From a plasmid, in sequence record NZ_KM577619.1: a stretch of 5,201 nucleotides of DNA, one strand, 5' to 3'. Made by a program: the position numbers. Shown here piece by piece: positions 1 through 3,000 of the stretch (its first letter is position 1; every line of letters begins with the position of its first letter).

Positions 1-3000
1 AATGATTGCACTGTATAAATAACCAGGTGTAGCATGTATGGAAAAGCACTTTATCAATGAAAAGTTTTCACGAGATCAATTTACGGGGAATAGAGTTAAA
101 AATATTGCCTTTTCAAATTGTGATTTTTCAGGGGTTGATTTAACTGATACTGAATTTGTTGATTGTAGTTTTTACGACAGGAATAGCTTGGAAGGGTGTG
201 ATTTTAATAGAGCCAAACTAAAAAACGCTAGCTTTAAAAGCTGCGATTTATCAATGAGTAATTTTAAAAACATTAGCGCCTTAGGTCTTGAAATTAGTGA
301 GTGTTTAGCTCAAGGAGCTGATTTTCGAGGGGCTAATTTTATGAATATGATAACTACAAGGTCATGGTTTTGTAGTGCTTATATAACCAAGACAAATCTT
401 AGTTACGCTAATTTTTCTAGAGTCATATTAGAAAAGTGCGAACTGTGGGAAAATCGCTGGAATGGCACTGTGATAACTGGCGCCGTGTTTCGTGGCTCCG
501 ATCTTTCTTGTGGGGAGTTTTCATCGTTTGATTGGTCTTTGGCTGATTTTACTGGTTGTGATTTAACGGGTGGGGCGCTTGGCGAGCTTGATGCAAGGCG
601 AATTAATTTAGATGGAGTGAAGTTGGATGGAGAGCAGGCGCTTCAGCTTGTTGAGAGTTTAGGTGTTATTGTTCACCGATAAAATCTAGGTAAAAAACGC
701 CTAATGCCCCAATGTGGTACAATCAAAACGGAGCGAAGCGACATCTTCATCTTGTCTTTGCTTTTCTCCATGATCAGTTATTGGGTCATGGTCTCTTAGC
801 TCGTTAATCTGGCTAAGTTTGGTTAGGTTGGGCTTCTTTCGACACTTCGCAATCCAAGAAATCCCTAGTCCGTTGATTGGTGCTCTTATCAGGTACGCAC
901 TGTAATCTTTCGATACCGCAGCGTGATTCGGAGGTAGAGCCGGAATTTCGTTTTCCGGTACGTTTTACTACCACAATTTGCCTGTTTATCCTTTCGGAGA
1001 CCGGGCTAAGTCCGAGTCAATCAAGTGGTGCATTTGGGTTAATGTCGTTGGCTGGTATTTAATGAGAACGTGACAAGCGCCTCTCACGTTGCTAAGATTG
1101 GATTGCGACGTCTAATCTGAGCAACGAATGCACAAGATTTAGAGTACCAGAGCCCTGTGATGCTGTCACGGGGCTTTGTTACATCTGGAGCTTGGTAAAC
1201 CTCATAAATTCAATTCGCAACGCTCGCCGCAAGGCGTGAACTTGTTTCACGTCGAGGAAGCGGAATTTCTCGAAAGCCTTATACTGTCTCCGTTCACACA
1301 TGATCGGAGGGTGTCTCTATGTCTCAATTATTTCGTTTGGCATCGCCAGAAGATTACGAATACATCGAAGAATTAAATTTATGGGAATTGTCATTTGATA
1401 AGCGACCGGTTCAAGGGGTTCGTTGTGAAGATCCGGTGATCGGGGCAGAAAAATATAATCAAGGGCGTGAAAAATTTAAGGCGTTAGCGTCACGGCATAA
1501 AAAACACTGGAAACCGAACGGATTGACCTTTTCGGAGTTGATCCGCTGGGCAATAGAATGCGGAACTCCAGAACAATGTCAGCTTGTTTTAGCGTTATAC
1601 CATTGCACAAACGATGATGATTATCAGGCGATGGGAATTCAGTTAAGCCGAAGTATTGATAATGCAAATGTCAGTCCGATCATCTTTTTCACAGGTAAAA
1701 ATCAACGGTTATTAGGTGATATTTCGATGCTAAAACAGCTCGAAGAAAAGGTGCGCTGACGTTAGGTTTACCTATTATTTTATGTATTATCCTATCTATT
1801 ATTCTATCTCTTATTTTATCTATTTCGTCTGTAATAGGTAGAATAATACATAGAATAAGATACAGAATAATAGATAGACACAAGATGACGTTGTGTTATT
1901 TCTTACCCATTAATCCACCTGTTATTCTACCTATTACTTTACCCGTTATTGCACCCAATTTAGGTATAACGGGCAGAATAACGGGTGAAATAATGGGTAG
2001 AATCATAGTTTTACTAACTTGCACCCCATGATACTTTCAGTATCAATGCCACTCATTTTCTGGACGAAAATGAATGACATAAGGCTCCGCCCTCTGGCTA
2101 TTTTCTTCGGCTGGACGCCTGCGAAAAAAACCATTCACCCAAGCCCGTCAAACTCACTGCGTTCGTCTGACCACCCCCTTTTTTCGCCCCTGTATTTGGT
2201 CGCTCAAAAATGTGGTGGTCAGACGCTTCGCTTGACGGGGGGCTTTGCCCCCAAAACGAAACACGTTCACTGGGGTTCACTTGCCATCGCTGGGGCGTGT
2301 CATTTCGTTTCGGCTCCCCCTGTTTTTCCCTTTCTTCGCTGGACGCTCATCAGGATAAAAACAAAAAGCCTACCGCCCTCGTTTTACTCGGTTGGTCAAA
2401 TCGCTTCTTGCCACAAAACAAGTTTGTGACTTTCAGCGATTTCGCATCGTTTTACTTGTCAGTTTGCACGATGTTAAAAACGCACTCAGAAGCCCGCAAA
2501 ACCGTTCTAAACTTTCAGCGTAGATTTGGGTGTTTTATAGGGTGATCGTGTCTTAAAATCGTTTCGAGGGGCTTTAATGGGGATGAACGGGAGGTTTTTG
2601 CTAACTAACTCGCCCGTTTAACATAAAAGGGATTAGAGTAACCCATTTTACCGTTTAAATCGCTCAGGCTTTTTCCATGTGAAATCTTTTGCGTGTCGTT
2701 CTAACTTTCTTTGTTTTTGTGCCTTATCTGCGATTCTTTGGCTCCAGATTTGTTTATATACCGTGGCTAGCAAGGTTTTCCGTTGGTCTTTATTTAACGG
2801 TTTACCGTTTTGCCTTTCATATTCATCAAAAGCCTGCCGCATAAACGTTTTTTCTTTTCGGGTTAAGTTTTTAATCTTTCTCATGGTGATTTTATATCCA
2901 AAACTCAAATTTTGAGCAAAAAAGTGCCTAATACCTCAATGTGGTACTAATCAAAACGGAGCGAAGCGACATCATCAATTTGTCTTTGCTTTTCTCCATG

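Follow-up and report, generated by a model that had tools for sequence, protein, structure and literature searches.

Why does a non-coding element of 430–500 bp occur twice on one small quinolone-resistance plasmid, both times closely behind a stop codon? The stretch of DNA analysed here (the window, 5201 bases, NZ_KM577619.1) is a complete circular plasmid with 99.8% identity to Proteus terrae pSDQ8C180-2 (NZ_CP073358.1, 5202 bp), and it carries one full copy of the element in each plasmid half, behind qnrD (copy 1) and behind a Sel1-repeat gene (copy 3). The original prediction, made from the sequence of the window, saw in it a family of structured 3′ untranslated regions (3′ UTRs) or small RNAs (sRNAs), or a mobile non-autonomous element. 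Our analysis points elsewhere. Very probably (we put the probability at about 85%) it serves as the vegetative replication origin of a family of small plasmids in which no replication protein is encoded. Its double occurrence would be explained by the make-up of the 5.2-kb plasmid, which joins two related mini-plasmids or replicons.

The element is shared by small plasmids without a recognisable replication gene

A BLAST search against plasmids returned the element region in 291 records. Identity was at least 99% among qnrD plasmids, 82–89% in other small plasmids, mostly from Morganellaceae, and ~73% in 1.7–5 kb plasmids of E. coli, Klebsiella, Enterobacter, Citrobacter and Salmonella. The homology spanned the entire element, from an A-rich run and CTAATGCCCC to the hairpin and TTTTGTACATCTGGAG. 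In three small E. coli/Klebsiella plasmids (1718, 3305 and 2059 bp) the element was the main common segment (84–90% identity over ~455 bp), and it was also found on circles of 1.5–1.8 kb, where it occupies roughly one third of the sequence. No Rep family in Pfam was found among the open reading frames (ORFs) tested on the window and on three complete small plasmids. Since every tiny plasmid of the group shares the element and no recognisable rep gene was found, the element is most simply read as the replicon. Plasmids carrying qnrD have been reported to replicate stably in plasmid-free E. coli, even with qnrD deleted, by a replication system described as uncharacterised (PMC3913671; PMC8789287), and the 1718-bp E. 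coli plasmid pMB9272_7 was published with “no replicon identified” (PMC11832570).

The origin reading is further supported by homology to the origin regions of three plasmids of Pasteurellaceae. An nhmmer profile built from Enterobacterales copies alone matched pB1000′ (Haemophilus; positions 3730–4070, E = 2.3e−34), pIG1 (Pasteurella; E = 2.5e−31) and pB000b (Frederiksenia; E = 5.2e−32). All of these matches lay upstream of the mob genes, in non-coding sequence, and the covariance model R1 scored 94–109 bits on the three plasmids.

Among 5,426 complete E. coli genomes the element was present in 32, once in each, and 31 of the 32 occurrences lay on plasmids (1.7–7.5 kb for those shown); none was annotated. 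In species-representative genomes a 16-base pattern scan produced mostly chance matches, and nhmmer filtering left ~20 true homologues. These homologues were located on contigs of 1.5–8 kb, several at 350–1300x coverage, and their hosts included Erwinia, Phytobacter, Enterobacter, Dickeya, Pseudocitrobacter, Intestinirhabdus and Proteus. The gene to the left of the element varied among plasmids and was sometimes oppositely oriented, and plasmids typed as non-mobilizable carried the element as well. Near-identical or identical mini-plasmids, including the 2.7-kb qnrD plasmid, were also seen as small contigs in assemblies of unrelated taxa (a Collinsella metagenome-assembled genome, Massilia, Fulvimonas, Pseudonocardia, Acinetobacter idrijaensis and Sphingomonas), most likely through contamination or mis-binning.

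Two full copies and a remnant in one molecule

The features originally described for the two full copies were all recovered. The motif GCCTAATGCC lies at 699–708, 16 nt past the qnrD stop codon (680–682), and again at 4080–4089, 11 nt past the Sel1 stop codon (4066–4068), and both copies end in a hairpin (1149–1177 and 4458–4486) followed by a U-rich tail. A highly similar 3′ block was also confirmed, with 96% identity over 82 nt (1025–1106 vs 4333–4414) and 87% over 93 nt (1107–1199 vs 4416–4508), or 88.8% when aligned over 205 bp, whereas the upstream parts were much more diverged. This likeness is far beyond chance. Copy 3 scored 150 bits with model R1 (4329–4498) and 88.7 bits with a second covariance model, R2 (4413–4492). 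Copy 2 is a remnant with 90–92% identity to 692–807 of copy 1 (92% over 105 bp via near-identical reference plasmids), and neither R1 nor R2 matched it. As first noted, the copies have no ORF in common, nor was any conserved across the element. Inverted repeats joining the element ends were not found in the window, and Rfam scans of the whole window and of 690–1210 (E ≤ 10) gave chance-level matches only, in agreement with the view that the element belongs to no known RNA family.

The upstream parts nevertheless share a hairpin with different stems and nearly the same loop, another feature of the original prediction that was upheld. In copy 1 (940–958) CCGGAA and TTCCGG enclose the loop TTTCGTT, and in copy 3 (4253–4270) CCTAC and GTAGG enclose TTGTCGTT. 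Relatives add three further stems on a conserved T(T/G)TCG loop (CCGTCA/TGACGG, CTTAAT/ATTAAG and CTTAAC/GTTAAG), which makes five stem versions family-wide.

Conserved promoters and folds suggest a primer RNA and an antisense regulator

Promoters, RNA folds and structural domains were compared across 20 lineages or homologues, including those of Pasteurellaceae, and pointed to two facing transcripts, a short plus-strand RNA I and a long minus-strand RNA II (Table 1).

Table 1 Coordinates of the proposed origin element, its predicted parts and associated sites in the window
Feature	Position	Strand	Description
Copy 1 of the origin element	693–1197		qnrD plasmid half
Copy 2, remnant	2918–3022	+	oriV-proximal 105 bp only
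Copy 3, second full origin element	4075–4505		within the 2.5-kb insert
Probable RNA-to-DNA switch (vegetative origin, oriV)	690–710	−	GGGG-CATTAGGCG-TTTTTT
Predicted RNA I promoter	1070–1098	+	GTGACA (1070–1075), 17 nt, TGc-TAAGAT (1093–1098, extended −10)
Predicted RNA I, antisense regulator, ~80 nt	1104–1183	+	5′ tail, 5′ stem-loop, terminator hairpin 1149–1177
Predicted RNA II promoter	1141–1169	−	−35 GTGACA (1169–1164) within the RNA I terminator hairpin, 17 nt, −10 TACTCT (1146–1141)
Predicted RNA II pre-primer, ~440 nt	695–1134	−	start ~1134 (copy 1) or ~4443 (copy 3), to the left boundary
RNA II 5′ domain	1028–1133	−	closing helix 1028–1034/1127–1133, hairpins 1089–1124 and ~1063–1086, single-stranded ~1035–1062
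Swapped-stem hairpin in the RNA II body	940–958 (copy 3: 4253–4270)	−	five stems, conserved loop
ColE1 primosome-assembly site (rriA)-like sequence	1216–1266	+	40 nt past the terminator hairpin
Xer/dif-like core	2616–2643	−	11-nt arm, 6-nt spacer, TTATGTTAAAC
Xer/dif-like core	4531–4558	+	11-nt arm, 6-nt spacer, TTATGTTAAAC
Xer/dif-like core	5135–5162	−	11-nt arm, 6-nt spacer, TTATGTTAAAC

The predicted RNA I promoter scored 9/12, with its TG, in a promoter scan, and its hexamers, 17-nt spacing and TGC were kept in 20/20 lineages. Variants included GTGACT or TTGAAT at −35 and TAGGAT at −10, and pB1000′ has TTGCAT-17-TGcTATGAT. Model R2 matched the RNA I unit of every member (89 bits on copy 1), and all 20 single-sequence folds took the same shape, in which a short 5′ tail leads into a composite 5′ stem-loop, followed by the terminator hairpin. 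The 3′ 126 nt folded at −52.2 kcal/mol on the plus strand (z = −6.4) and at −41.2 kcal/mol on the minus strand. That the 3′ hairpin acts as a plus-strand terminator, as first proposed, agrees with its U-rich tail and with its G·U pairs, which fall on the plus strand; the wobble asymmetry of the long and central hairpins was mixed.

The predicted RNA II promoter faces that of RNA I. In 20/20 lineages we found a −35-like hexamer (TTGACA, GTGACA, TTGTGA, TTGAAA and others) and a TAnnCT −10 box, with a spacing of about 17 nt. The −35-like box is kept though the stems of the terminal hairpin differ completely between lineages. In pB1000′ the promoter reads TTGACA-17-TAATCT, and the −35 box corresponds to the TTGACA box described for Pasteurellales (PMC8683028, S1 Text). 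To the right of the terminator, a search of the flank for a minus-strand promoter gave nothing consistent.

The greater part of the conserved structure falls to the minus-strand transcript. The RNA II 5′ domain had the same architecture in 20/20 homologues, including a conserved single-stranded stretch of 28 nt; in every one of them the first 6–8 nt pair ~100 nt downstream, and the closing helix so formed starts 0–2 nt from the predicted transcript start. Across the 5′ domain and the terminal hairpin, in an alignment built with a covariance model, 92.6% of cells were paired, compared with 81.6 ± 0.7% in shuffles and 29–45% in slid controls. Twenty of 35 pairs had changed on both sides, against 10.7 ± 1.5 in shuffles, a count that no shuffle reached (0/500). 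The suspected selection on a folded nucleic acid was borne out. Two smaller pairings had been singled out at the start. The AGATT...AATCT pairing proved to be part of the longer hairpin at 1089–1124, which covaries across relatives, whereas AACGTGA/TCACGTT is present but lineage-specific, the family conserving a pairing shifted by a few bases.

As predicted, RNA I and RNA II would overlap at their 5′ ends by 26–34 nt in the 20 lineages, an overlap to which the closing helix of RNA II contributes its 5′ strand and the long hairpin its 5′ arm. Copies 1 and 3 differ here by one indel and four substitutions in ~30 nt, denser than elsewhere, whereas the 82 nt upstream of the overlap, which include the −35 box of the RNA I promoter, are 96% identical between them. 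Such a pattern is expected if both replicons were once compatible plasmids, although the fit is suggestive only. We are moderately confident that the specific assignments of RNA I and RNA II are correct.

Proposed mechanism and position of the origin

In the mechanism that we propose, the minus-strand promoter, with its −35 box inside the plus-strand terminator hairpin, would give rise to a pre-primer, RNA II, of ~440 nt running leftward to the G-run/CATTAGG boundary at ~693–710. By analogy with ColE1, RNA II would there stay hybridised to its template, be processed and be extended by host DNA polymerase I. The facing promoter would produce RNA I (~80 nt, two stem-loops and an intrinsic terminator), whose 5′ 26–34 nt would be complementary to the 5′ end of RNA II. 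By pairing with RNA II, RNA I would open the closing helix as well as the long hairpin and block primer formation, and in this way set copy number and incompatibility; an unfolding of the RNA II 5′ domain that stops primer maturation would parallel the action of RNA I in ColE1.

The 3′ end of RNA II is placed at the left boundary because the RNA II of marine RNA-based (MRB) plasmids, described below, ends at a conservation boundary. The sequence CTAATGCCCC is nearly invariant in Enterobacterales and homology ends there. Read on the minus strand, the conserved end GGGG(G)CATTAGG lies 459–470 nt from the RNA II −35 box (459–463 nt for the G-run itself, with homology ending ~10 nt beyond), and pB1000′ and pIG1 have their poly-GC run and reported oriV at ~+490–515. 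From this conserved end and its spacing, set against pB1000′/pIG1, the RNA-to-DNA switch is probably located at ~690–710 in copy 1 and ~4075–4090 in copy 3. An oriV at the left boundary would also account for the position of both copies right next to a cargo gene's stop codon.

Several observations weigh against this scheme. The G-run is followed by a T-run in copy 1 and by nothing comparable in copy 3, whereas ColE1 and pB1000 have an A-run, and neither an A-run nor a DnaA-box-like motif of the pB1000′ kind was present at the left boundary. Neither the side of the rriA-like site (that of the RNA II promoter) nor its strand (plus) suits a leftward fork, which would leave it unexposed. Similarity to the ColE1 origin sequence was not detectable, and Rfam RNAI gave no match (E ≤ 10). 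Covariation in the RNA I fold was weak (5 compensatory pairs vs 2.3 expected, reached by 5/500 shuffles), and the alignments behind all covariation values were fitted to the structures tested. Finally, the folding energy of full-length RNA II could not be told from that of its shuffles in copy 1 (z = −0.35) and was only modestly lower in copy 3 (z = −2.0).

Alternative readings

The rriA-like site bears directly on the direction of synthesis. It came to light through a 13-nt blastn match to ColE1. The motif CGCTCGCCGCA...CGAGGAAGCGGAA is kept in the right flank of most enterobacterial members, in a shorter version in the window, and in a Klebsiella plasmid the site has 98% identity over 56 nt to ColE1 1307–1362, a stretch of the RNA II-sense strand that lies 110 nt downstream of the origin. 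Either the site belongs to a ColE1-like transfer-origin (oriT)/bom module, an oriT having been predicted in pMB9272_7 (PMC11832570), or DNA synthesis has the polarity opposite to that proposed above. With opposite polarity the same replicon would use a plus-strand primer, from read-through of the 1070–1098 promoter or as a longer RNA. Synthesis would begin at the right end, close to the terminal hairpin and ACATCTGGAG, and proceed rightward across the assembly site, and the minus-strand RNA would act as regulator. The position of the site, 30–60 nt right of the hairpin and oriented as downstream of the ColE1 origin, is in keeping with this, as are the conservation of ~15 nt past the hairpin and the lower consensus folding energy of the plus strand. 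However, in MRB plasmids the short terminator-ended RNA is the trans-acting repressor and the long opposite RNA ends at the far boundary; in pB1000′/pIG1 a poly-GC run, an A-run and a DnaA-box-like motif mark the far boundary as they do the ColE1 origin, and the mob genes lie on that side, just as they do in ColE1; the closing helix starts exactly at the predicted minus-strand start; and the assembly site, which may be part of an oriT module, is absent beside copy 3 and in Pasteurellaceae. GC and AT skew in 17 plasmids had no consistent sign favouring either polarity. On balance we judge opposite polarity unlikely.

The readings offered by the original prediction fared worse. Both full copies start 11–16 nt past a stop codon and end at a terminator, as would be expected of a structured 3′ UTR, or of a separate sRNA gene, that serves the upstream ORF, but other plasmids have unrelated or opposite-strand genes upstream. 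Since the left gene varies, their position reflects cargo genes abutting the origin boundary and not a UTR. The element moreover accounts for around one third of 1.5–1.8-kb plasmids without a recognisable rep gene and is homologous to plasmid origins, and we regard a 3′ UTR or sRNA family as extremely improbable. A non-autonomous mobile element, whether a miniature inverted-repeat transposable element or a mobile insertion cassette, would accommodate several copies and a truncated one in a single molecule, and qnrD has been described in a mobile insertion cassette and in a Tn3-derived miniature-element composite transposon (TIME-COMP) containing the element. Yet no terminal inverted repeats or target duplications occur at the element ends, and the element was found once per E. 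coli genome, on plasmids in 31/32 cases. Its presence on plasmids typed as non-mobilizable and the position of the Xer cores elsewhere (2616–2643, 4531–4558 and 5135–5162) also speak against a mobile element or a maintenance (cer) or transfer (oriT) site, all of which we consider very improbable.

A replication origin remains our preferred reading. A more far-reaching proposal, which we advance tentatively and with the odds somewhat against it, is that the element represents an uncharacterised enterobacterial branch of RNA-primed replicons, in which the RNA II promoter is nested in the RNA I terminator, a 5′–5′ contact of ~30 nt unzips the closing helix, and a ColE1-type primosome site lies on the “wrong” side, perhaps through a different polarity or a bidirectional start.

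Composition of the plasmid and its typing marker

Positions 1–2634 and 5134–5201 match a common qnrD1 plasmid, the 2683-bp type represented by pCGS49 and pDIJ09-518a, and 2635–5133 (2.5 kb) is an insertion relative to it. The sequence CGTTTAACATAAAAGGGATT is repeated at both ends of the insert (2615 and 5134) and on the minus strand reads as a dif/cer-like core of the Xer consensus, with an 11-nt arm, TCCCTT and TTATGTTAAAC. The cores at 2616–2643 and 5135–5162 flank the 2.5-kb segment and share the XerD-type arm and spacer. Their other arms differ, as would be expected after Xer recombination of two plasmids. Because the core is repeated at both insert ends, the plasmid looks either like an Xer-mediated cointegrate or like the result of inserting a module bounded by Xer sites. 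PLSDB contained no free form of the 2.5-kb partner; the composite itself was also present in a Serratia record. Our first reading of the window, an integron cassette array with attC sites, was abandoned once it proved to be a plasmid with Xer-like cores.

The window was typed as Col3M (PlasmidFinder/MOB-suite), as were its closest relatives, and a 157-bp Col3M marker has been reported upstream of qnrD (PMC10581215). Plasmids typed as Col3M shared 2470–2636, beside an Xer core, at 93–96% and the origin element at only 82–87%, and Enterobacteriaceae plasmids with the origin element alone were untyped. On this basis the Col3M marker is probably 2472–2630 and not the origin. Part of this region, 2472–2598, forms with 4576–4702 a 127-nt inverted repeat (71% complementary) adjoining the XerD-type arms; the region gave only a weak, sub-threshold Rfam match to COG2827 RNA hairpins.

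Other features of the plasmid were also recorded. Upstream of qnrD, CTGTATAAATAACCAG at 11–26 fits the LexA-box pattern, in agreement with the reported SOS regulation of qnrD (PMC8789287). Downstream of ORF2, two nested AT-rich inverted-repeat blocks (1766–1879 and 1904–2017; arms of 33–48 nt, 78–89% complementary) gave a spurious microRNA match in Rfam. In the insert, an 86-aa ORF (2648–2908, minus strand) has 41% identity (E = 8e−14) to a 78-aa ORF of the E. coli mini-plasmid pMB9272_7; its product is a small basic protein without a Pfam family that recurs on plasmids bearing the same origin element. The gene to the left of copy 3 (3583–4068) encodes a secreted protein, in which three tandem 108-nt units (62–73% identical) at 3680–4003 correspond to Sel1 repeats.

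Implications

Plasmids carrying qnrD spread quinolone resistance in Proteus, Providencia and Morganella. If our assignment is right, it provides them with a concrete origin and, in RNA I, with a candidate determinant of copy number and incompatibility. The sequence and covariance models could be used to type small plasmids that lack an identifiable replicon, and the Col3M typing marker, as our comparison suggests, would not mark the origin. Were the element indeed a novel branch with its own control circuit, many small plasmids now regarded as “untypeable”, qnrD carriers among them, would belong to the family. The findings are useful for plasmid typing and for understanding qnrD plasmid maintenance, and reveal no new kind of biology.

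Comparison with known replication systems

The closest known systems are the origins of Pasteurellaceae plasmids (pB1000, pB1000′, pIG1, pLS88 and pB000b). The published Pasteurellales origin is protein-free, with a two-stem-loop RNA I, a TTGACA RNA II promoter and an oriV ~512 bp away by a poly-GC run; pB000b was counted among 1,035 “ColE1-like” plasmids, Col3M was not counted as ColE1-like, and the origin of pLS88 has been mapped experimentally to a region of ~800 bp (Ares-Arroyo et al. 2021, PMC8683028). The element shares with these origins sequence homology over a core of ~300–350 nt, the lack of a Rep protein, two facing promoters (for RNA II, GTGACA-17-TACTCT in the window, with a −35 box that is exactly TTGACA in pB1000′ and pIG1), a predicted two-stem-loop RNA I and the RNA II 5′ domain. 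On these points, by sequence comparison and folding in silico, it appears to qualify as a Pasteurellales-type ColE1-like replicon. Its G-run ~460–500 nt from the RNA II −35 box may correspond to their poly-GC run. It differs in host order, here Enterobacterales, and its left, oriV-proximal 100–150 nt could not be aligned. The boundary is GGGG-CATTAGG with a T-run or nothing, in place of a poly-GC run, A-run and DnaA-box-like site, and, unlike in Pasteurellaceae, the flank on the RNA II-promoter side carries a ColE1-like primosome assembly site. In addition, RNA I ends at the RNA II start in the published model, whereas here it would extend from the 1070–1098 promoter to the terminator hairpin.

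The MRB plasmids of Vibrionaceae, such as pB1067, offer a second parallel. There, 488 bp of protein-free sequence sufficed for replication as a minimal origin; its RNA I, a 68-nt terminator-ended (A/T-flanked) transcript, is by experiment both repressor and incompatibility determinant; and RNA II, on the opposite strand, is at least 465 nt long with its 3′ end at the conservation boundary (Le Roux, Davis and Waldor 2011, PMC3035462). By published architecture only, the element with its predicted transcripts resembles MRB in a protein-free origin of ~488 bp, an RNA I of ~70 nt with a consensus promoter and two stem-loops, and a longer opposite-strand RNA II ending at the conservation boundary. 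In MRB, however, the mapped start of RNA II lies ~43 nt past the terminator, so that this transcript spans RNA I completely, whereas here the predicted start lies inside the RNA I unit, with an overlap of ~30 nt.

As in ColE1, pMB1 and p15A, replication would be Rep-independent and would rely on a long pre-primer RNA controlled by a short antisense RNA; a G-run close to the origin, a size of ~500 bp and a homologous primosome assembly site in the flank are further points in common. The −10 box TAATCT of some members is the same as that of ColE1 RNA II. Neither the nhmmer profile nor the covariance models matched ColE1, and blastn found nothing in its origin and only the 13-nt match elsewhere. 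ColE1 RNA I has three stem-loops and is fully complementary to the RNA II 5′ end, whereas two stem-loops and a 26–34-nt overlap are predicted here, and there is no rop gene. No weight was given to a review that labels a qnrD plasmid “ColE1-type”, since either a GenBank annotation or an identity of 50% or more with reference origins was enough for that label. The element would work much as ColE1 does, yet does not belong to ColE1 in the strict sense. Neither annotated nor recognised in the literature searched, it is an enterobacterial branch of a known type of replicon, Rep-independent and regulated by RNA.

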